Part shown: one piece after another, positions 2,299-20,275 of the stretch
How the letters are laid out: each line of letters begins with the position of its first letter
Position numbering within the stretch: the first letter of the stretch is position 1
Source of the DNA: Verrucomicrobiota bacterium
GTDB taxonomy: Bacteria > Verrucomicrobiota > Verrucomicrobiia > Opitutales > Cerasicoccaceae
Assembly: GCA_039818205.1 (NCBI GenBank)
Contig: JBCBUK010000003.1
Span: 320,001 to 384,000 of the forward strand
DNA length: 64,000 bases
Direction: 5' to 3'
Position numbers and translations under genes: made by a program
Notes under the pieces: model-generated
The model's input: only the letters and a program-made list of their open reading frames with translations
Told to the model about the DNA's origin: nothing
Databases searched by the model: none

Positions 2299-3105
2299 AT
2301 GAAATTTTTGCTTTTTGGATTGCTTTGTTTCCTGTTGGGATTCGCGGGAGGTGTCTTGTTGATTCAGGCAGTAATCGGTGAAACCGAACCTATCGTCGTT
2401 TATCGATTGTTGAAAGGGGAGGCTGACAGATCTGAAAGAAGCTGGGCTGCCGGGTCTGTTTCGGCTGATGAAGAAGCAGAGATTGGGGCGCTGGAACAAA
2501 TTACTGCGGAAAATGATGATGGTTCTATAATAACAATCACATTTTTGGCCGATGGCAGCTCTGATGAAAGAGAAATGCAGGCCAAGGAGATCGGACTAAA
2601 TCTTGATCGCATTCTTAACATGGAGACTGTGGGGCTCAGTGAAAATCTCGTTTTGACTGAAGAAGCGCGGATCAAATACCGGCTCACAAGGGAACAAGTT
2701 GCGGAGGTAAATCAGTATTTCGTCACTAAGCTTGGTGAGCTCGAGGAATATCAGAGGGAAAATGTGACCATCGAAAGAGTGGGAGATGCCAAGATCCAAG
2801 CTAGAATTCCTCCTTATCCTGACGACAGAGATCTAGAGACCGAATTACTCGAAGATCTCGAGCGTTTGGTAGACTCAGATATTGCCGGAGGAATTTTCTA
2901 CGGTAGCCAGGCGAATTTAGTGCAGTCTTTTCATGGCCTCGGCAAGTGGGATCGCGTCATTACTTTTAGTAGTTTGAGCAGTGATAAGATCGCTATCGAG
3001 GATGTATACACGAATGCCGTCGGTATGGAGGTGATGTCGATATGGAGTACAACGGCTGATCTCCCCGCCGAGTATCAGCATTTTCTGAAGATGGTTGAGG
3101 AGTAG
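2299..3105 (+). CDS. Hypothetical protein with N-terminal signal/anchor helix
   Basis: 268-aa ORF, hydrophobic N-terminus MKFLLFGLLCFLLGFAGG, acidic soluble remainder, no recognised motif. Confidence 0.7.
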   Translation: MKFLLFGLLCFLLGFAGGVLLIQAVIGETEPIVVYRLLKGEADRSERSWAAGSVSADEEAEIGALEQITAENDDGSIITITFLADGSSDEREMQAKEIGLNLDRILNMETVGLSENLVLTEEARIKYRLTREQVAEVNQYFVTKLGELEEYQRENVTIERVGDAKIQARIPPYPDDRDLETELLEDLERLVDSDIAGGIFYGSQANLVQSFHGLGKWDRVITFSSLSSDKIAIEDVYTNAVGMEVMSIWSTTADLPAEYQHFLKMVEE

Positions 3106-4315: not shown

Positions 4316-6478
4316 ATGTCCGCTACGCTCCAGTTGTCCCCTGCGAATGCTTCCGATCGGAAGTACCCGCTGGAGTATACGCGTAACATCGGGATCGCCG
4401 CGCACATCGATGCCGGCAAAACGACGACAACCGAACGAGTTCTTTATTACTCTGGCGTTGTTCACAAGTTGGGCGAAGTCCACGAAGGCACTGCGGTGAC
4501 CGACTGGATGGAGCAGGAGCGTGAGCGTGGAATCACGATCACCTCTGCAGCAATTTCCTGCAACTGGACGACCAAAGAAGGGCCTTTCGGCGGCACCGAG
4601 CACCAGATCAATATTATTGATACACCTGGGCACGTTGATTTTACCGCTGAAGTGGAGCGCTCCCTGCGCGTCCTCGACGGAGCTGTCGGTGTTTTCTGCG
4701 CCGTCGCTGGTGTCCAGCCCCAGTCCGAAACGGTCTGGCGCCAAATGGACAAATACCACGTCCCCCGCATCGCGTTCATCAATAAAATGGACCGGACGGG
4801 GGCTGATTTTTTTGCAGCTGTTGAGTCTATTCGCGAGAAGCTCGGTGGGAACGCTCATCCGATCTATCTGCCAATCGGGGCGGAGGATCAGCTGAGCGGT
4901 CTGATCGATTTGGTCACCATGCGTGCTGCGGTCTACGACCAAAGCGATGTTTCTGGTGTCGCTTTTGAATGGCAAGACATCCCAGCTGACCACCTCGAGC
5001 AAGCGGAAGCACACCGTGAGGAGCTAATTGAAGCGCTTTGTGATTTCGACGACGAGCTCGCTGAAAAGTATCTCGGCGGCGACGACGTTCAGCCGGACGA
5101 CATCCGCACGGGTATCCGGAAAGCAACCATGAGCCTCGATTTTATCGGCGTAATTCCCGGTTCTGCTTTTAAGAACAAGGGTGTGCAGATGCTCATGGAT
5201 GCAGTTGTCGACTACCTTCCAAGCCCAGTCGATGTGAAGCCAATGCCGGCCCACGACGAAGATGGTGAGCGTGAGATCGATCCGATTGTAGCTGATGACG
5301 CAGGTAGCGTATGCGGCCTGGCATTCAAGCTGATGAACGATTCCTTCGTTGGAAAACTCGTCTTTTTCCGAATTTATCGCGGCACCCTGCGCAAGGGTTC
5401 GATGCTCTACAATCCACGCACCCGCCGGAGCGAACGCATTTCCCGCCTCATGATCATGAAGGCTGATGCACGCGAAGACATCGATATCGCTCATTCGGGC
5501 GACATCTGTGCTCTGGTTGGAGCGAAGGATGTCATCACCGGCGATACGCTTTGCGAAAAATCGAATCCACTCGTTCTGGAGCCACCGTCGTTCCCTGAGC
5601 CGGTCATTTCGATGTCCATCGAGCCCAACACCAAGGCCGACCAGGAAAAGCTCTCGCTGGGACTTCAGCGTCTTGCCGAAGAAGACCCGACTTTTAAGGT
5701 AAGCTCAAACGAGGAAACCGGCCAGACCATCATCTCTGGAATGGGCGAGCTTCACCTCGAGATTATCCGCGACCGATTGTTCCGTGAGTTCAAGGTCGAG
5801 GCCGAAGCCGGCAAACCGCAAATTTCCTACCGCGAGACCATCACCCAAGCAGCCGACGGCGAAGGCAAGTTCGTTCGCCAATCCGGAGGTAAGGGGCAGT
5901 ATGGTCACGGCTTCATCAAGCTTGAGCCACAAGAAGCCGGGAAGGGCGTCGAAGTCGTCAACGAAATCGTTGGTGGTGCAATCCCGAAAGAATACATCAA
6001 GCCTTTCATGGATGGCGTCAAGGAAGCCGCCAACACCGGCACGATCGCTGGATATCCAGTTGTCGATTGGAAAGTCCGCGTCGTTGATGGATCATTCCAC
6101 GAAGTCGATTCCTCGGAGATGGCCTTTAAGATGGCCGGTATTTTTGCATTCCGTGACGCGGCGGACAAGGCAGGCGCTGTTCTCCTTGAACCGATCATGG
6201 AAGTCGAAGTTTCTGTGCCCGAAGAATACCAAGGCGATATCGTTGGTGATATCAACCGTCGCCGTGGTCAAATCCAAGGTATGGAGTCCAAGAATGGCCT
6301 GGCTGTTCTTTCCGCAAAAATCCCCCTGGAAACCATGTTCGGTTACGCCACCGACGTGCGTTCTTTGTCCAAAGGCCGCGCAAATTACAGCATGACGCCG
6401 CTTTGCTTCGAGCAGGTTCCTGGCAGCGTGCTCAAAACCATTGTTGAAACCTCCGGCTATATGCCCGCCCGTTCCTAA
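4316..6478 (+). CDS. fusA: Elongation factor G
   Basis: [46 protein letters not shown]. Confidence 0.99.
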
Positions 6479-6513
6479 TCCTCTTTTCCACACCCAAGAA
6501 ATCCTTTCTCATC

Positions 6514-6822
6514 ATGGCAGGTCCAAAAATTCGCATCAAACTCCGCGGTTACGATTACCGCATCATCGACCAGTCGGCAGCTGACATTGTAGACACCGCG
6601 AAGCGCTCTGGCGCCCGCGTCAGCGGTCCCGTGCCGATGCCCACTCGCATCGAAAAGGTGACGGTTAACCGTTCCCCGCACGTTGACAAGAAGTCGATGG
6701 ATCAATTTGAACTGCGCACTCACAAGCGCCTCATTGACATCATTGAGCCCACCGCCCAGACAGTGGACGAGCTGAAGAAGCTCAACCTCCCAGCTGGCGT
6801 GGATATCAATATCACTGTTTAA
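6514..6822 (+). CDS. rpsJ: 30S ribosomal protein S10
   Basis: [10 protein letters not shown]...[22 protein letters not shown]. Confidence 0.99.
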
Positions 6823-6956
6823 TCACAACAAAACCTTAACTTAATTCGTTAACCGTCCGTTACTAAGCGATTTTTTAACTGACAGTTTTAACCTTCACGC
6901 AGGTCTCACGACAACGGAGACGCGGAGCAATCCAACTTTCCACCTGCCTCTGACTT

Positions 6957-7604
6957 ATGAGCTTTACCCTAATTGGTAAGAAAATTGGGATGACCCAGAT
7001 ATTCGACGGCAACGCGCTTGTGCCCGTGACCGTTGTTGAAGCTGGACCATGCCCAGTCGTTCAAGTTAAGTCCTCCGAAAAGGATGGCTACGAAGCCGTG
7101 CAAATCGGCTACGGTCCTCAAAAGGAACACCGCGTTTCCAAGCAACTCCAAGGTCACTTCGCTGCTGCAAAGGTAGCGCCGACCAGCGAGCTCAAGGAAT
7201 TCCGCACGGGTGACAACGAGGACGAATACAACGTTGGTGACGTTCTTACGGTTGCCAAATTCAATGAAGGCCAGAAGGTCGACATTATTGGCACGACCAA
7301 AGGTAAGGGTTTCCAAGGCGTTGTTAAGCGCTGGGGATTCTCTGGTGGGCCGGCTACGCACGGTTCGATGACGCACCGCCGCGGTGGTTCCTACGGTCAG
7401 TGCCAATGGCCAGGTGAGGTCTGGAAGGGCAAGAAGATGCCCGGTCACACCGGTAGCCGCAGCCGCACGACACAGAACCTTCGTGTTGTTAAAATCCTCG
7501 AAGATAAGAACTTGCTCCTGTTGAAGGGCAGTGTTCATGGCCCTAACGGCGGCACGGTTTATATCCGCACCGCAATCAAGAAGAAGCGCTCAGAACAAGC
7601 GTAA
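6957..7604 (+). CDS. rplC: 50S ribosomal protein L3
   Basis: GKKIGMTQIF, KGKGFQGVVKRW, KGKKMPGH. Confidence 0.99.
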   Translation: MSFTLIGKKIGMTQIFDGNALVPVTVVEAGPCPVVQVKSSEKDGYEAVQIGYGPQKEHRVSKQLQGHFAAAKVAPTSELKEFRTGDNEDEYNVGDVLTVAKFNEGQKVDIIGTTKGKGFQGVVKRWGFSGGPATHGSMTHRRGGSYGQCQWPGEVWKGKKMPGHTGSRSRTTQNLRVVKILEDKNLLLLKGSVHGPNGGTVYIRTAIKKKRSEQA

Positions 7605-7624
7605 TTTAGCCGGAGATTATACCA

Positions 7625-8248
7625 ATGAAGCTTAAAGTATTTACCGCCGACGGCAGCTCCAGCACTGAAAAGGAGTTTGCTATCCCGACTTTCGAGGACG
7701 ACAAGGGTCTTCAAGCACTTAAGGAAGTCGTCGTCAACTATCAGTCCAACCAACGCCAAGGCAATGCGAAGGCCAAGACCCGCGCCGAAGTGCGTGGTTC
7801 GGGCAAGAAGATCTATCGCCAGAAGGGCACCGGTAACGCACGTCACGGTGACCGTCAGGCACCTATTTTTGTTGGCGGTGGCGTTGCTCACGGACCGAAA
7901 CTCCGCGACTGGACCAAGCACACCAATAAGAAGGTTAAACTCTTGGCTATGCGTCGTGCATTGTTTGACAAAGCAAGCGACGGTGAGATTGCCGTTATTG
8001 AGAAATTCGAGATGTCGGCTCCTAAGACCAAGGATTTCGCCTCGATTCTCGGCAACATCAAGCCAGAGGGCAAAGTCCTGATCGTTGACCAACAGTTCGA
8101 CGACAACACCGCACTTTCCGCGCGCAACCTCGCTCGCGTCCACATTACCGATTCTGCATCCCTCAATCCATGGGACCTCGTACGTTTTGACAATCTGGTC
8201 ATCACGGAAAAGGGAATCGAGCAAGTTCTCGCCCGCACTGCACAGTAA
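7625..8248 (+). CDS. rplD: 50S ribosomal protein L4
   Basis: KTRAEVRGSGKKIYRQKGTGNARHG. Confidence 0.99.
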   Translation: MKLKVFTADGSSSTEKEFAIPTFEDDKGLQALKEVVVNYQSNQRQGNAKAKTRAEVRGSGKKIYRQKGTGNARHGDRQAPIFVGGGVAHGPKLRDWTKHTNKKVKLLAMRRALFDKASDGEIAVIEKFEMSAPKTKDFASILGNIKPEGKVLIVDQQFDDNTALSARNLARVHITDSASLNPWDLVRFDNLVITEKGIEQVLARTAQ

Positions 8249-8268
8249 CCAATAACCGGCGAACGATC

Positions 8269-8559
8269 ATGATTTCCCCCGACACCATTATTAAAGAATA
8301 CCGCGTGACGGAAAAGGCAGCCGATCTGACTGCTCATACCAATAAGTATACTTTCGAAGTATTTCCGTCGGTAAACCGTCGTCAGGTTGCATCCGCAGTC
8401 GAGAAGCTCTTTGACGTCAAGGTAGTGCGCGTAAACATCCTTAACCAGCGCCCAAAGACCAAGCGTAATCGCATGGCCCGTGGACGCGCCGGCAGCACTG
8501 CTGCCGTCAAGAAAGCAATCGTCACTCTCGCTGAGGGCGAAAGCATTGAACTTGCATAA
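8269..8559 (+). CDS. rplW: 50S ribosomal protein L23
   Basis: VTEKA...KYTFEV...AVEKLFDVKV...KKAIVTL, operon position. Confidence 0.98.
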   Translation: MISPDTIIKEYRVTEKAADLTAHTNKYTFEVFPSVNRRQVASAVEKLFDVKVVRVNILNQRPKTKRNRMARGRAGSTAAVKKAIVTLAEGESIELA

Positions 8560-8582
8560 ACTTTTAGGAGCTTAGAAACGAC

Positions 8583-9440
8583 ATGCCGCTCGTATCCAAC
8601 AATCCGACCACTCCGAGTCTGCGATTCCGCATTCAGAACAAACAGGACCTCGCGCCCAATAAGCCGGAGAAGAGCCTTACTCAGTCGCGCCACAATCCCA
8701 AGGGCCGCAACTGTTATGGCCGCATCACCTCGCGTCACCGTGGGGGTGGCCACAAGCGCCTTTATCGCTTGATCGATTTCAAGCGCGAGCGCCTCGATCA
8801 GGAAGCTGAAGTTTTGTCGATCGAATACGATCCAAACCGTTCGGCGAATATTGCCCTCGTGCAGTATCCTGACGGCGAGAAGCGCTACGTTCTCGCTTGG
8901 CGTGGGCTTCAGATTGGTCAAAAGGTCGTCAGCACCAACGAAAAGGTCGAGGAGTATACTCCGGGTCTTTGCTGCCAGCTGAAGAACATTCCACCAGCAA
9001 CTTTTATCCACGCAATTGAGATGCAGCCTGGCCAAGGCGCCCGCATTGCCCGCAGCGCGGGTCAGTCGGCTCAGTTGATCTCGATTGATGGTGCTTACGC
9101 CACGATCAAGATGCCTTCGGGAGAAATCCGTAAGGTTCACTCTTCTTGCCGCGCCACTATCGGTCGTGTCGGTAACGAAGAGCACGGTGACGAAGTCATT
9201 GGTAAGGCTGGACGTAACCGCTGGAAGGGCCGTCGCCCCAAGGTTCGTGGTATGGCCATGAACCCGGTCGATCACCCAAATGGTGGTGGTGAAGGTCGCT
9301 CGAAGTCTGGTGGTGGTCGCCAGCACCCAACTTCTCCATGGGGTCAGCTCGCTAAGGGCTATCCAACCCGTAAGAAGTCCAAGCAATCCAACGCCCTGAT
9401 TCTTGTTCGCCGCAATGGTCGCAAGATGAAGAAGCGTTAG
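8583..9440 (+). CDS. rplB: 50S ribosomal protein L2
   Basis: GGGHKRLYR, IEYDPNRSA, RGMAMNPVDHPNGGGEG. Confidence 0.99.
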   Translation: MPLVSNNPTTPSLRFRIQNKQDLAPNKPEKSLTQSRHNPKGRNCYGRITSRHRGGGHKRLYRLIDFKRERLDQEAEVLSIEYDPNRSANIALVQYPDGEKRYVLAWRGLQIGQKVVSTNEKVEEYTPGLCCQLKNIPPATFIHAIEMQPGQGARIARSAGQSAQLISIDGAYATIKMPSGEIRKVHSSCRATIGRVGNEEHGDEVIGKAGRNRWKGRRPKVRGMAMNPVDHPNGGGEGRSKSGGGRQHPTSPWGQLAKGYPTRKKSKQSNALILVRRNGRKMKKR

Positions 9441-9461
9441 TCTCTCTTTTCTTTAATCACA

Positions 9462-9482
9462 ATTCTGCAATCCGCAATCCGC
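9462..9482. repeat. Short heptamer tandem (ATTCTGC-AATCCGC-AATCCGC)
   Basis: Read directly in the rplB-rpsS spacer. A single AATCCGC recurs at 11832-11838. Confidence 0.5.
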
Positions 9483-9489
9483 ATAATTC

Positions 9490-9759
9490 ATGGCACGTTC
9501 GATCAAAAAAGGCTTCTTCGTTGACCCGAAGCTGATGGACAAGATTGAAGCCGCACAATCTGCTGGCTCCACTAAACCCATCAAGACGTGGTCGCGTCGC
9601 TCGACGATCACTCCCGAATTCGTTGGCCTCAACCTTTCCGTTCACAATGGTAAGGGCTTCATGCCCGTTTACGTTACGGAAAACATGGTTGGCCACAAAT
9701 TGGGTGAGTTCGCACCGACGCGCACCTTCAAGGGTCACCAGCCGTCCTCCAAGAAATAA
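9490..9759 (+). CDS. rpsS: 30S ribosomal protein S19
   Basis: [27 protein letters not shown]. Confidence 0.99.
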
Positions 9760-9780
9760 CCCGTTTCGCTCATCTTAACC

Positions 9781-10338
9781 ATGATCCGTTTCCTTAAACA
9801 AGCGCTCTTGATTTCCGGTCTTTTGACTGGCGGGTCGCTTGTAGCCGAGGAAAGCGAGGCCCGCTTCGACCTGCGTTTTATTACGTCAGACTTCGAAGGT
9901 AAATGGGCCGAGATCGAGGTTGAGGAAGAGCGTCCGGTTGAAACCGTCAATCCCGGCTTTCCAACCAAAGCCCCCGCTGAGGTGGTTGTGGTTGAGGATT
10001 TGAATCCGGCCGAGTTTGCGATCCTCCGCGAGGCCGCCCAGTTGCGGACCGAAGTGCCGGAGTTTGCTAATAGCAGTATTTATCCATCCGGTGAGGCCGT
10101 TGTCTTTGGTGTCACCGAAAACAAGGCCGCCGACATTGTCATTCTCGACAATGGCCTCGATCAAGGTTTCCGCGTTGGGATGCTCTGTGAGATCACCCGC
10201 GAGGACACCGTCGTCGGAACCATTATTTTAGTTGCCGTTGAAGCTGACCGCTCCGCCGGCCTCATCGTTAACCTTCAGCCAGGCCGCAAAATTGTTTTCG
10301 GCGACCTGGCCCGCATTAAGACCGTTCAATTTTCCTAA
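9781..10338 (+). CDS. Hypothetical exported protein (signal peptide; FlgT C-terminal-like beta domain) inserted in the S10 operon
   Basis: Fills the rpsS-rplV gap with 21- and 13-nt spacers. Signal peptide MIRFLKQALLISGLLTGGSLVA. C-terminal pattern VILDNGLDQGFRVG...VGTIILVAV...IVFGDLAR. Confidence 0.8.
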   Translation: MIRFLKQALLISGLLTGGSLVAEESEARFDLRFITSDFEGKWAEIEVEEERPVETVNPGFPTKAPAEVVVVEDLNPAEFAILREAAQLRTEVPEFANSSIYPSGEAVVFGVTENKAADIVILDNGLDQGFRVGMLCEITREDTVVGTIILVAVEADRSAGLIVNLQPGRKIVFGDLARIKTVQFS

Positions 10339-10351
10339 CTAAGTAGATACC

Positions 10352-10702
10352 ATGGAAGTCTTGGCTCTCACCAAATACGCGCGTATGTCGCCAATAAAGG
10401 TTCGTGAAGTCGCCCGCGAAATTCAGGGCCTTCCCGCCAATGAAGCGATGGACCTTTTAAAGTTCATCCCGCGCAAGTCCGCACGCCTCTTGTCTAAGAC
10501 GCTCGCTAGCGCCATTGCTAACGCGGAGAACAACCACAACCTTTCATCCGACGATCTCGTGATCAAGAGCGCGATCATCGAAGAGGGCCCAGCCTTCCGC
10601 CGCTTCCAACCGGTTGCTCGTGGTTCCGCTCACCCCCTTCGTAAACGCACTAGCCACATTCGCATCATCCTCACCGACGAGGTGAAGGAGCCAGCAGCTT
10701 AA
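10352..10702 (+). CDS. rplV: 50S ribosomal protein L22
   Basis: RMSPIKVR, SAIANAENN, ARGSAHPLRKRTSHI. Confidence 0.99.
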   Translation: MEVLALTKYARMSPIKVREVAREIQGLPANEAMDLLKFIPRKSARLLSKTLASAIANAENNHNLSSDDLVIKSAIIEEGPAFRRFQPVARGSAHPLRKRTSHIRIILTDEVKEPAA

Positions 10703-10725
10703 CCCTTTAAAACACGCACTTAAAT

Positions 10726-11361
10726 ATGGGACAGAAAGTAAATCCTAAAGGCTTCCGCCTCGCCGTCCGTCGTGACTGGGACAGCCGTTGGTTCGCCGAC
10801 AAGAAGCAATTCCCTGAGTTCATTGCTGAGGACAACAGTATCCGCACCTTCCTGAATGAGCGCCTGCGCTTTGCCTCCGTGCCAAAGATCTACATCGAGC
10901 GCGCCGGCCAGCGTGTCCGCGTCAAGATCTACACCGCTCGTCCAGGTATCGTCATTGGTCGTAAGGGTGCAGAATTGGACAAGCTCAAGGCTGACCTTTC
11001 CAAGCTCGTTAAGCGCGAAGTCCTCCTCGACATCGCGGAAGTCAAGAAGCCAGACCTCGTTGCCCAGCTCGTCGCCGAGAACGTAGCACTGCAACTTGAG
11101 CGTCGTATTTCTTTCCGCCGTGCGATGAAGAAGGCCGTCCAGACCACTATGCAGATGGGTGCTGACGGTATTCGCGTCCAGTGCGCTGGTCGTCTTGGTG
11201 GTGCGGAAATCGCCCGGACCGAACAACAGCGTCAGGGTCGTGTGCCTCTACACACATTGCGCGAAAACATCGACTATGGTTTCGCTGAAGCACGCACCCT
11301 TTATGGGATCATCGGCATCAAGTGCTGGATCTGTAATTCTGACCCGGAAGAAGGCCTGTAA
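10726..11361 (+). CDS. rpsC: 30S ribosomal protein S3
   Basis: MGQKVNPKGFRL, RPGIVIGRKG, GRLGGAEIAR, VPLHTLR. Confidence 0.99.
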   Translation: MGQKVNPKGFRLAVRRDWDSRWFADKKQFPEFIAEDNSIRTFLNERLRFASVPKIYIERAGQRVRVKIYTARPGIVIGRKGAELDKLKADLSKLVKREVLLDIAEVKKPDLVAQLVAENVALQLERRISFRRAMKKAVQTTMQMGADGIRVQCAGRLGGAEIARTEQQRQGRVPLHTLRENIDYGFAEARTLYGIIGIKCWICNSDPEEGL

Positions 11362-11396
11362 GCCCTCGCAACGTTAATCTTTAAAGACTTAGAACA

Positions 11397-11825
11397 ATGG
11401 CAAAACTTCTACCAGCCAAGACCAAGTACCGCAAGGTGCACAAGGGCCGTATCCGTGGACGCGCCAAGGGTTGTGACACGCTCGCATTTGGTGAGTTCGG
11501 CTTGCAAGCTCTGGGCCGTGGTCGCTTGACCGCCGCTCAACTCGAAGCCGCTCGTGTTACCATCAACCGTTACCTTAAGCGCCGCGGTAAAGTTTGGATC
11601 CGTGTTTTCCCTCACAAGCCAGTGACCAAGAAGCCTCAAGAAACCCGTCAGGGTAAAGGTAAGGGGCCCGTTGAGTACTGGTGTGCGATCGTTAAGCCCG
11701 GCACGATGCTCTTCGAAGTATCGGGTTGTGGTGCTCAAGCCGCTCGCGAAGCGATGCGCCGCGCCGATGGCAAGCTGCCTTTCCGTTGCCGCTTTGTTAG
11801 CCGCGAAGAACTCGAACAATACTAA
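11397..11825 (+). CDS. rplP: 50S ribosomal protein L16
   Basis: KVWIRVFPHKPVTKKP.ETRQGKGKG. Confidence 0.99.
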   Translation: MAKLLPAKTKYRKVHKGRIRGRAKGCDTLAFGEFGLQALGRGRLTAAQLEAARVTINRYLKRRGKVWIRVFPHKPVTKKPQETRQGKGKGPVEYWCAIVKPGTMLFEVSGCGAQAAREAMRRADGKLPFRCRFVSREELEQY

Positions 11826-15511: not shown

Positions 15512-16195
<684 letters not shown>

Positions 16196-16248
16196 ATTTA
16201 TTTAACCTTCAACGACGGCTCGCCCCGCGAGCCTGAGAAAGTAAAATC

Positions 16249-16728
16249 ATGAAACTTCACACTTTAAAGAACGTTCCCGGAGCGAAGAGCCGTCGCAAGC
16301 GCGTCGGTATCGGTGAAGGCTCGGGCCGTGGTAAGACTTCGTCGCACGGTCAAAAGGGTCAAAAGTCACGTAGTGGCGGCAGTATCCGTATCGGTTTTGA
16401 GTCGGGTCACATTCCTCTCTACCGTCGTTTGCCACACCGTGGTTTCAACAACTATAAGTTCCGCAACGACTACGCGATCGTCAACTTGAGCGACCTCGAC
16501 CGCGTTGAGGGCGATGTTGTAAACAAGGAAACTTTGGTTGCTGCTGGTCTCGTTCGTGTTCGCGCGAAGAAGGTCAAGATCTTGGCTGATGGCGAAGTCA
16601 CCCGTGCATTGACGGTGACTGTCGACAAGTTCTCCGGATCAGCGGTTAGTAAAATCGAAGCAGCCGGTGGCAAAGCCATCATTGCTGAGGCAACCAATAA
16701 GAAGGGCGAAATCATAGCTGAATCTTAA
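16249..16728 (+). CDS. rplO: 50S ribosomal protein L15
   Basis: GKTSSHGQKGQKSRSG, GFESGHIPLYRRLP, KIEAAGG. Confidence 0.99.
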   Translation: MKLHTLKNVPGAKSRRKRVGIGEGSGRGKTSSHGQKGQKSRSGGSIRIGFESGHIPLYRRLPHRGFNNYKFRNDYAIVNLSDLDRVEGDVVNKETLVAAGLVRVRAKKVKILADGEVTRALTVTVDKFSGSAVSKIEAAGGKAIIAEATNKKGEIIAES

Positions 16729-16901: not shown

Positions 16902-18419
16902 ATGTTAAACGCATTCGTCAATTGTTTCAAAATCCCGGAACTCCGGGCCCGAATACTCTTCACGCTTGGCATGATCTTCATTGCCCGCGTGGGTGCGAAT
17001 ATCCCGCTACCCGGGATTGACCCACGCCCATTGCAAGAGTATTTCGCGACCGCTGCTGACAGCGGTCTCTTTGGGCTCTATAACATGTTCACCGGGGGTG
17101 CTCTTCTCAAGGGTGCGGTCTTCGCGCTCGGCATCATGCCATATATTAGTGCGTCGATTATTTTGCAGTTGATGGGTGCTGTGGTGCCAACCTTGGCCCG
17201 CTTACAACAGGAAGGGGAGACTGGTCGCCAGAAGATCACACAGTATACCCGCTATTTGACCATCGCCATTGCGCTGGTTCAATCGGTTCTGCTGAATCTG
17301 ACTCTGCTGCGCAATCCGGAGAGCTTCTTCCAGGGATTCTCGATTGCTGAGTTTGGATCGATCGTTGTCATAGATCCGACCTGGTTCATGATCACGTCGA
17401 CGATCTACTTGACGGCAGGCACCGTTTTGCTGATGTGGATTGGTGAGCAAATAACCCAGCGCGGTATTGGTAACGGTATTTCACTGCTGATCACCATTGG
17501 TATTTTGGCTGACTTACCGTCGGCCGTGAGCTTTGCGATCGATGGCCTGATGGCGCCGGCTGGTGCAGCTATTCAAATCTCCTCGGCTCAGTTTGCTGCG
17601 ATGATGATCTTCCTCGTCCTCGTGATTGCAGGTATTGTTTCGGTGACTCAAGCAGTGCGCAAAATACCGGTCCAGTATGCGAAGCGAGTTGTTGGGCGAA
17701 AGGTATTCGGTGGTCAAAGCTCGTTCCTTCCGTTGAAGGTTAATTACGCGGGTGTTATGCCGGTTATCTTCGCGAGTGCGATTTTGATGTTCCCGACTTA
17801 TCTGTTGGAAACACTCGCTGGCGCGACTGGCCAGGATTTCTTCCGCGATATTGCGAGCTGGCTCTCACCAGGTCACTGGTTCTATTACGTATTTTATGGA
17901 TCGCTCATTCTTGGATTCTCCTACTTCTGGGTCTCCATCATGTTCAAGCCGATCCAGATTGCCGACGATTTGAAGAAGAATGGTGGTTATATTCCTGGCG
18001 TTCGCCCGGGTGAACCGACTGCCAAGTTCCTCGACTTCGTCATGACCCGCTTGACCCTGGCCGGTGCGATCTTCCTGACCGTCATTGCTATTTTGCCATT
18101 GCTGTTAGCAGATTCGTTGCGCATTCCATGGCAGGTATCACAGTTCTTTGGTGGCACCGGTACGCTGATTGCCGTTGGCGTGACATTGGACACGATGCGT
18201 CAGATCGAGACCTTCCTTTTGAACCGCCACTACGATGGCTTCCTAAAGAAGGGCAAGTCTCGCCACCGGGCCTCCAAGGCATCTCGCACCCGTCAACTTG
18301 TTGATGTTGCCGAGGTGAAGACCTTGAACGTCGGCATGCTCTGGACCACTTGTGGCATCCTGCTGGCGGTCGGACTTGTTTCATGGGTTATCCGTTCTTT
18401 CTTCCTGGGCGCTGGCTAA
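16902..18419 (+). CDS. secY: Preprotein translocase subunit SecY
   Basis: FALGIMPYISASII, GIGNGISLLI, AGVMPVIFAS, IPGVRPG, HYDGF, then a C-terminal extension. Confidence 0.99.
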   Translation: MLNAFVNCFKIPELRARILFTLGMIFIARVGANIPLPGIDPRPLQEYFATAADSGLFGLYNMFTGGALLKGAVFALGIMPYISASIILQLMGAVVPTLARLQQEGETGRQKITQYTRYLTIAIALVQSVLLNLTLLRNPESFFQGFSIAEFGSIVVIDPTWFMITSTIYLTAGTVLLMWIGEQITQRGIGNGISLLITIGILADLPSAVSFAIDGLMAPAGAAIQISSAQFAAMMIFLVLVIAGIVSVTQAVRKIPVQYAKRVVGRKVFGGQSSFLPLKVNYAGVMPVIFASAILMFPTYLLETLAGATGQDFFRDIASWLSPGHWFYYVFYGSLILGFSYFWVSIMFKPIQIADDLKKNGGYIPGVRPGEPTAKFLDFVMTRLTLAGAIFLTVIAILPLLLADSLRIPWQVSQFFGGTGTLIAVGVTLDTMRQIETFLLNRHYDGFLKKGKSRHRASKASRTRQLVDVAEVKTLNVGMLWTTCGILLAVGLVSWVIRSFFLGAG

Positions 18420-19693: not shown

Positions 19694-20275
19694 ATGAGCG
19701 AAGAAGAAAAGAATCAAGCGGCTGAAGCTGCTCCTGAGAAGCCAGCTGCGACCGAAACTCCTGTCGCTACTGAAAAACCAGCTGATGCTGAGCAACCGGC
19801 AACCGCTGAAGGCGAAGCTCCTGAGGGTGCCGAGGGCGAGGAAAAGAAGTCTGGCCAGCCAACTGCGAAAGATTTGCTCACCGAAGATCTCGGAATTGGC
19901 AAAATTCGTAAGGCTAAGGGTAGCAAGAACATCCATTCCGGTATTGTTCACATTCTTGCGACCTTCAATAACACCAAAGTAACGTTCACCGACACAAGCG
20001 GAAATGTCATTTCCTGGTCCAGTGCCGGTAAGATGAACTTCCGTGGCTCTCGCAAGTCGACCGCCTACGCTGCTCAGGTTGTTACTCAAGATGCGGGCAA
20101 AGTTGCACTTTCTCACGGATTGAAGGAAGTTACCGTTAAGGTCAAGGGACCTGGAATGGGCCGCGACTCTGCGATCCGTGCGCTGCAAAGTTTGGGTCTG
20201 ATCGTAACTGCGATCACTGACACGACTCCAGTGCCTCACAACGGCTGCCGCCCACCAAAGCGTCGCCGCGTTTAA
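19694..20275 (+). CDS. rpsK: 30S ribosomal protein S11 with acidic N-terminal extension
   Basis: [34 protein letters not shown]. Confidence 0.98.

Follow-up and report, generated by a model that had tools for sequence, protein, structure and literature searches.

Few gene orders in bacteria are as well conserved as the one to which the junction of rpsS and rplV belongs. In the Verrucomicrobiota this junction holds a gene for a predicted exported protein. What this protein is, how its gene came to be there and what it might contribute to the cell are the questions raised by a 185-residue reading frame in the window considered here, the whole 64,000-nucleotide stretch of Verrucomicrobiota DNA (Opitutales; Cerasicoccaceae) that was analysed. 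The gene, its neighbours and the parts of its product are as follows:

9490..9759, + strand: rpsS, the upstream neighbour, which encodes uS19 as judged from its translation (ORF list; tblastn anchor)
9781..10338, + strand: the inserted gene, ATG start, 185 aa, no family name (ORF list)
9781..9846, + strand: predicted Sec signal peptide, residues 1-22, of the signal peptidase I type with no lipobox (by eye and hydropathy; hydrophobic N-terminal helix in the model)
9850..9921, + strand: conserved N-terminal segment, residues 24-47 (alignment A1; pN/pS 0.16; pLDDT ~50-57)
9922..10050, + strand: variable linker, acidic and proline-containing, residues 48-90 (pN/pS 0.47; pLDDT 49-63)
10051..10335, + strand: P-x-F lead-in and predicted six-stranded beta-barrel of the FlgT-C / TsaP / F1-crown / MreC fold class, residues 91-185 (model, fold searches, pN/pS 0.15)
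10352..10702, + strand: rplV (uL22), the downstream neighbour, start at 10352 (ORF list)

A predicted exported barrel protein between rpsS and rplV

The preliminary description of this locus reported a tightly packed gene with no terminator on its strand, and the coordinates and the terminator scan agree: 21 nt separate the rpsS stop from the 185-residue frame, 13 nt separate that frame from the rplV start, and between 8500 and 11500 the only terminator match lies on the - strand (9531-9516). No sigma-70-like promoter was found in the same interval, and a cis-RNA search of 6400-11500 returned no Rfam family at gathering score. The gene has the GC content of the surrounding operon. The closest named proteins, 70-72% identical to its product, come from four Cerasicoccus species and are annotated as hypothetical, which makes the host Cerasicoccus-like. 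Its codon-adaptation index is 0.693 with the window's ribosomal-protein genes as reference (range 0.675-0.777), above that of 97% of the genome's 1645 long ORFs, a background that includes shadow ORFs. The selection among orthologues that had been put forward as a check is evident: in six same-genus copies, with pN/pS computed from uncorrected proportions, the barrel (residues 91-185, 0.15) is under purifying selection, the segment at 24-47 has a value of 0.16, and the linker and signal region stand at 0.47 and 0.52.

The same cluster in the window has several other features of its own. An ORF of 268 aa (2299-3105, + strand) lies just 5' of rpsL; its product has a hydrophobic helix at the N-terminus and matches no NCBIfam family. 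The rpsE (uS5) core is preceded by a long Gly-rich N-terminal tail of about six G-G-G-G-N-R units (15512-16195, + strand), and the rpsE-rplO spacer (16195-16249) is only 53 nt, which leaves no space for rpmD (uL30) at its usual site. Further along, secY (16902-18419) is directly followed by map and then rpsM, and rpsK (uS11; 19694-20275, + strand) encodes 193 aa, its product being extended at the N-terminus by a long acidic stretch rich in Ala, Glu and Pro.

The N-terminus of the 185-aa protein, judged by eye and by Kyte-Doolittle hydropathy, has a basic end, a hydrophobic stretch from residue 8 and then an A-x-A-like site that is clearer in congeners. Its best 11-residue mean, 1.7, is the equal lowest among the 23 short forms of the family, and by hydropathy nearly all family members carry an N-terminal hydrophobic segment. 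AlphaFold2, run with 21 sequences, models residues 101-180 with confidence as a six-stranded barrel (pLDDT 90-97) and the preceding N-terminal half (residues 23-100) with low confidence. The glycine-rich pattern that the preliminary description had picked out in the C-terminal half is present as V120-x-L-D-x-G125-x3-G129-F-x2-G133, G146-x-I-x-L-x2-V153 and I171-x2-G174-D175, and the proposed likeness of this non-ribosomal protein to the FlgT C-terminal barrel is borne out by VIA-align (8z5n_5; Z 9.6, rmsd 2.7, 75 residues). V/F1-ATPase crowns score as high (Z 10.0 and 9.7), and HerA HAS barrels, MreC (7.6) and TsaP (7.2) also rank. The Akkermansia form is modelled as helices at 7-73, 82-120 and 126-143 followed by the same barrel, and FlgT-C is the top match of this predicted model (Z 11.6, rmsd 1.8, 73 residues). 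Because V/F1 crowns match the model of the 185-aa protein as well as FlgT-C does, the predicted fold is a common one and uninformative on function. A Foldseek search against the PDB was dominated by F1/V1 ATPase chains; only the crown barrel aligns, and an ATPase role was rejected.

Sequence searches against Pfam, NCBIfam and the PDB returned nothing above cut-off. The long-form profile has two weak matches among PDB sequences, TsaP (E 0.15) and MreC (E 0.28), and kinship with bS1 was set aside, the weak matches (E 0.26 and up) spanning 28 residues. Two long-form proteins (P0180 and P0211) bear a precomputed match to Pfam PF26666, and in the ESM Atlas, taken as a source of leads only, Verrucomicrobiota clusters score 0.86-0.87 and FlgT_C-bearing clusters 0.78-0.83. 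Longer fusion proteins (322-2000 aa, profile A2) numbered 0 among 7994 candidates, which is weak evidence. The conserved columns are glycines, strand hydrophobics, the final G-D and one Arg, with no catalytic-looking set among them; the Arg is invariant among the 14 long junction forms (100%) and is found in 90% and 52%, respectively, of the 20 Lentisphaeria forms and the 23 short forms, and the 185-aa protein has Glu in that column. A homotrimer prediction for the barrel scored 0.30 against a mark of 0.42 and carries no weight in either direction.

Three known systems invite comparison. The FlgT C-terminal domain (PF16538; residues 287-377 of the Vibrio LPHT ring protein, 8z5n_5) has the six-stranded barrel and Gly spacing in common with the family. 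A preprint describes FlgT as an envelope ring scaffold of ~377 aa with N, M and C domains, the last of which scaffolds the T-ring; the 185-aa protein, in contrast, has neither an N nor an M domain, and its gene lies in a ribosomal operon. PF16538 (cut-off 27 bits) matches neither the 185-aa protein, 21 A1 members and 42 A2 members nor anything else in the whole genome, one paralogue scoring 19.8 bits. A flagellar role was ruled out, since the L-ring gene flgH was not found in this 99.97% complete genome and is missing in 59 of the 73 Opitutales genomes with a family match.

TsaP, an exported and non-catalytic protein, has C domains (6ve2, 3jc8) of the same barrel class, and its profile matches to the family are weak (E 0.71 and 0.15). 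As described in a preprint, TsaP combines LysM with two tandem barrels, its FlgT-like domains form a belt around the PilQ secretin, and it is dispensable even for twitching. The family differs in having one barrel (in both models), no LysM match in the 185-aa protein or the family profiles, no link to pilus genes, and an abundance in Akkermansia that does not match that of the secretin Amuc_1098. Secretins occur in 148 of 151 Opitutales genomes with or without the gene, which makes their co-distribution uninformative; this genome has five secretin matches.

The long forms and MreC (PF04085) have the same order of N-terminal hydrophobic segment, coiled coil and barrel; MreC barrels align at Z 6.8-8.7, and there are weak NCBIfam MreC matches, the best at E 5e-4. 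In contrast to MreC, the family has a single barrel rather than two and ribosomal neighbours rather than mreB, and the Opitutales form lacks the coil. The genome's PF04085 match is a separate gene (G000:C8:131269-131727), and a replacement of MreC, the protein that binds and activates PBP2/RodA, was ruled out because a true MreC occurs in 185 of the 201 genomes searched across the phylum. The 16 genomes in which PF04085 was not found are those of a single Akkermansia-type genus, g109 (16 of 16; G173, G184, G194, G202, G212, G226, G232 and others), and it was found in all 185 searched phylum genomes outside it; most g109 genomes have three members of the barrel family, including a tandem pair (L132).

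The same profiles detect an unnamed paralogue family in the phylum with a membrane anchor, a long coiled coil and the same barrel (G000:C7:203272-204099; L132, L139-L141, L144, L220-L224, L226). Paralogues form a separate group in the tree (88/92, with one long-branch short form inside), have a stronger N-terminal hydrophobic helix and lack the conserved Arg. They lie beside pgi in several Opitutales or as tandem pairs (L132, L223) near dnaX or an NAD(P)H-hydrate repair gene, and are found in some genomes without the junction gene. Non-ribosomal genes in ribosomal-protein clusters are not in themselves exceptional: secY and map in the window likewise share cluster transcription and growth control, and rimM, trmD and rpoA are further examples. 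Those genes, however, serve translation, transcription or export and occupy other sites, whereas the gene described here encodes a predicted exported protein.

Distribution and history in the Verrucomicrobiota

The survey of the junction proposed in the preliminary description revealed that the gene has a wide following. Homologues were found in 23 of 41 related genomes, and the order rplB-rpsS-X-rplV-rpsC held at 20 of the 20 nearest loci returned. Profile A1 matches 73 of 151 Opitutales genomes, nearly always once, leaving about half without a match; among 38 further matching loci, 35 have the gene at the junction, two more are the pieces of a single junction interrupted by contig ends (G137), and the last holds a paralogue (G135). 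Most Opitutales members are 110-145 aa long and consist of signal, P-x-F and barrel; the only ones with the N-terminal extension (172-187 aa) are those of this genus and of the three related loci L007-L009. Between their stop and the rplV start, short forms mostly leave 4-21 nt, and in Akkermansia and some others the gap reaches 39-67 nt. Thirty negative genomes searched with rplV yielded 28 loci, in 26 of which the junction (-1 to 97 nt) is free of any ORF. Given these clean junctions and the half of Opitutales that is unmatched, the gene is not universally needed. Of the other two negative loci, one holds an unrelated frame of 41 aa and the other a strongly diverged signal-peptide ORF of 110 aa; the latter (L065:1161-1490, + strand, genome G020) matches the family profile at E 0.027 and is probably a highly eroded family member.

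Outside Opitutales, weak matches to profile A2 are proteins of 160-425 aa with a hydrophobic N-terminus, long helices and a barrel, again encoded between rpsS and rplV. Carriers of this long form include A. muciniphila, Phragmitibacter flavus, Verrucomicrobium sp. GAS474 and members of other classes. Comparison of the two profiles by HHalign shows this form to be homologous to the short one (probability 99.0, E 5e-18, 83 columns). A profile search of 1.84 billion representatives returned 1645 proteins at E 0.001 or better. Within a phylum sample of 201 genomes, the 150 with a listed rplV position form the basis of the junction counts: among the matches listed, a family gene ends no more than 250 nt upstream of rplV in 96, a match lies elsewhere only in 25, and 29 have no match. 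This is thus a real phylum-wide gene of the Verrucomicrobiota, located directly upstream of rplV. In the data examined the feature appears confined to this phylum; in P. limnophila, for example, the rpsS and rplV tags are consecutive (Plim_0481 and 0482). One contig labelled Thermodesulfobacteriota bears a Verrucomicrobiales-like copy directly before rplV (L306:1-813) and is probably misbinned rather than a case of transfer.

Split operons indicate which neighbour the gene follows. At Verrucomicrobiales-type loci the order rpsS-X-rplV is found in 8 of 8. In Lentisphaeria the S10 operon is split (L143, L178-L191, L227-L297), and rpsS is in the upstream flank at none of 71 loci found with a Victivallales-type rplV; the gene is directly upstream of rplV at 50 of them and not at 17, the flank being too short at four. 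Where the operon splits, therefore, the gene is linked to rplV and not to rpsS. Fifteen of the 25 genomes with matches elsewhere only belong to one genus in which the gene has been relocated as a single copy. Ten of these loci were fetched and seven placed in the tree, where they nest among Lentisphaeria forms (support 100/92). The retention of a single-copy orthologue after it left the operon suggests that the protein is valuable apart from its location. No neighbour is shared consistently by the relocated copies at their new sites, where ftsH/FHA, lptF/G and an RND pump occur. At L212, L214 and L216 the relocated gene lies 3-8 nt behind a same-strand gene of 1035-1048 aa, an AcrB-type RND pump in the two that were scanned, and two other copies lie one gene behind an ORF of LptF/G size (confirmed for L208). 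The remaining ten genomes of the 25 look like carriers of paralogues, three of which were read (G211, G277, G333).

A tree of 86 columns, unrooted and with many open forks, groups 22 of the 23 short forms in a single clade on a long branch (99/100). The simplest history compatible with such an unrooted tree would be one insertion in the phylum ancestor, after which the helices were lost in Opitutales and the gene itself disappeared many times.

Expression in Akkermansia and essentiality in V. spinosum

Published data from two relatives bear on the function of the gene. In Akkermansia muciniphila the orthologue is Amuc_0299, a hypothetical gene between Amuc_0298 (L22) and Amuc_0300 (S19) in the tables of PMC11480725, which give an mRNA baseMean of 2944 for it and of 1032, 991, 2491 and 4557 for L22, S19, S3 and L2. 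From mid-log to the end of growth its log2 change is 2.07 in the same source, and those of L22, S19, S3 and L2 are 2.05, 2.59, 1.76 and 2.09. In the tabulated results of a second study its mRNA falls with its neighbours (-1.71 versus -1.68 to -2.39; PMC12552655). The protein is detectable, being found in 14 of 14 whole-cell samples of a published iBAQ table, where it reaches 2.2-5.3% (median 3.6%) of the median of nine ribosomal proteins in every sample; iBAQ is a rough measure, and an exported protein may be lost from pellets. These values are far from the roughly one copy per ribosome of a ribosomal protein. The second, independent proteome, as tabulated on a log scale, has a mean of 6.3 for Amuc_0299 and 11.2-12.9 for its neighbours (PMC12552655).

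By the same published iBAQ values, Amuc_0299 protein amounts to ~1.35 times FtsZ, ~0.46 times SecY (0.27-0.61), ~0.38 times SecD (0.17-0.51; 14 samples) and ~0.15 times the secretin Amuc_1098 (0.06-0.25). Across samples it follows S19 (Spearman 0.90), and at the end of growth it is down 2.6-, 1.4- and 2.6-fold. Since the mRNA moves with its neighbours and the protein drops as growth ends, growth coupling holds in these tables. The preliminary description had gone further and proposed co-expression at ribosomal-protein level, a claim that in these Akkermansia, rather than Cerasicoccus, data is true of the mRNA and not of the protein. In the window, mRNA folding around the start codon of the 185-aa gene is no different from that of its neighbours and hence does not explain a low protein output. 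Because its codon use is like that of ribosomal-protein genes, the protein may reach a higher level in its short form than was measured in Akkermansia.

In V. spinosum, the published TraDIS data (PMC12283558) place VSP_RS22560 between rplV (VSP_RS22555) and rpsS (VSP_RS22565) and call it essential with an insertion index of 0.00127. This long-form gene, in one species, is assigned to the family by position and length alone; the index equals 1/785, which fits a 261-aa gene like its 261-aa relatives, and at the library mean of one insertion per 12 bp about 65 insertions would be expected. In the portion of Data S5 covering the VSP_RS225xx tags, 18 of 19 are essential (PMC12283558). VSP_RS22525 is the exception. 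Situated between rplN and rplE, it is identified as rplX by position and length; it takes insertions at near the mean library density (19/242 = 0.0785), and the difference from VSP_RS22560 (1/785) has a Fisher P of 1e-11. The mraZ-position tag, likewise named by position and length, is non-essential at 0.114 in this source, the deletable mraW is lowered to 0.023, and mreC, like VSP_RS22560, is called essential (PMC12283558).

Simple polarity is disfavoured as an account of the essential call by these data, because the rplX-position gene of the same cluster tolerates insertions with the essential genes from rplE to secY behind it. The depression of mraW, though it can be deleted, indicates that some polar or fitness effect exists in this dataset, far weaker than at VSP_RS22560. 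Two complications may still bear on this comparison, namely coupling of translation to that of rplV and a promoter located behind rplX.

uL24 is an assembly-initiator protein. The non-essential TraDIS call at the rplX (uL24) position in V. spinosum is, as far as the published table goes, unusual for such a protein.

Possible roles of the protein

We infer an envelope location and a role in envelope building for this predicted exported protein, and on balance we lean towards its being a growth-coupled, non-catalytic barrel adaptor on a cell-envelope machine. The protein would be exported by Sec, with cleavage of its signal into the periplasm, and its synthesis would keep step with growth through shared ribosomal-operon regulation, a lower translation rate or faster turnover bringing mRNA of ribosomal-protein level to an amount of protein like that of FtsZ or SecY. 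By analogy with the same fold in FlgT (T-ring), TsaP (PilQ) and MreC, the barrel may dock on a partner complex, for which our best guess would be a growth-linked wall or outer-membrane assembly complex. The helices of the other classes may be a spacer or oligomerisation arm that Opitutales dropped; since Opitutales do without them, the barrel would be the working end. The membrane-anchored, coiled-coil-plus-barrel paralogues may cover for the gene in lineages that lack it. A bolder possibility, which we raise tentatively, is that the family is an undescribed, essential and Verrucomicrobiota-specific component of wall growth, division or outer-membrane assembly that is wired to the S10 operon and cut some thirty-fold after transcription to an FtsZ-like level.

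The most serious competitor to an envelope adaptor is that the gene is a passenger, an envelope gene of modest value that landed in the phylum ancestor and stays since its disruption would disturb rplV and the genes behind it. Growth coupling would then be a side effect, and the TraDIS call would reflect lost translation of rplV through translational coupling. The many independent clean losses, the protein level far below that of ribosomal proteins and the attachment of the gene to rplV in split operons are what one would expect of a passenger, as are the short gaps to rplV in most short forms and the lack of any Shine-Dalgarno-like sequence before rplV or among the other starts listed. Against this, the rplX- and mraZ-position genes of V. 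spinosum take insertions in the published data, the former with essential genes behind it, the barrel is under purifying selection, the orthologue was kept after relocation, and the gaps of 39-67 nt in Akkermansia and some others are long for strict coupling. We therefore regard a passenger as unlikely.

Another candidate function is in protein export. The product might work in the periplasm alongside the Sec translocon or in the delivery of outer-membrane proteins, its gene being transcribed with those of the ribosome to serve co-translational export. The location of secY in the same cluster in both the window and V. spinosum fits this idea, and so does the abundance of the Akkermansia protein relative to SecY and SecD in the published samples, but similar abundance is weak evidence, secY of Akkermansia is elsewhere (Amuc_0933) with the gene still by rplV, and no known Sec partner is among the top fold matches; a Sec partner thus seems quite improbable to us. 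The fold shared with TsaP and the weak sequence match to it, together with the five secretin matches in this genome, could point to a belt that stabilises a secretin of type II secretion or type IV pili in the phylum. Such a belt is hard to reconcile with secretins that occur irrespective of the gene, the missing LysM domain, an amount of protein well under that of Amuc_1098 in the iBAQ table and the reported dispensability of TsaP for twitching, which is at odds with the essential call, and we consider it very unlikely. Finally, a ribosome-associated protein or assembly factor whose hydrophobic N-terminus was misread as a signal peptide might be suggested by the S10-operon position, by RNA-binding members of the barrel class (EF-Tu domain II, Gar1), by Gar1, EF-Tu and IF2 domains among the fold matches (Z 7.0-7.6) and by the correlation with S19 in the proteome, but it is highly improbable given an N-terminus that by hydropathy is hydrophobic in nearly all members, membrane-anchor-like paralogue N-termini, a surface that is acidic and not basic in the 185-aa protein, and ~3.6% of ribosome stoichiometry in the published table.

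The family is a new one on a known fold at an unusual and ancient position. Topic searches of the literature found nothing on an insertion at the rpsS-rplV junction, and no paper found by full-text search, which leaves most subscription literature outside its reach, names Amuc_0299, AMUC_RS01705 or VSP_RS22560. If the essential call proves to be an artefact of coupling, the gene would be reduced to a curious passenger. The published data, as far as they extend, nevertheless suggest both essentiality in V. spinosum and growth-dependent production in a much-studied gut commensal, A. muciniphila. Targeted mutagenesis now exists in V. spinosum, so that function is directly testable, and the barrel-only form in the window, the relocated copies and the clean losses provide natural controls. 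Should the bolder possibility of an essential, phylum-specific envelope component hold, the gene would open a way into the set of 100 essential proteins of V. spinosum whose function is unknown and would represent a hard-wired link between ribosome synthesis and the expansion of the envelope.
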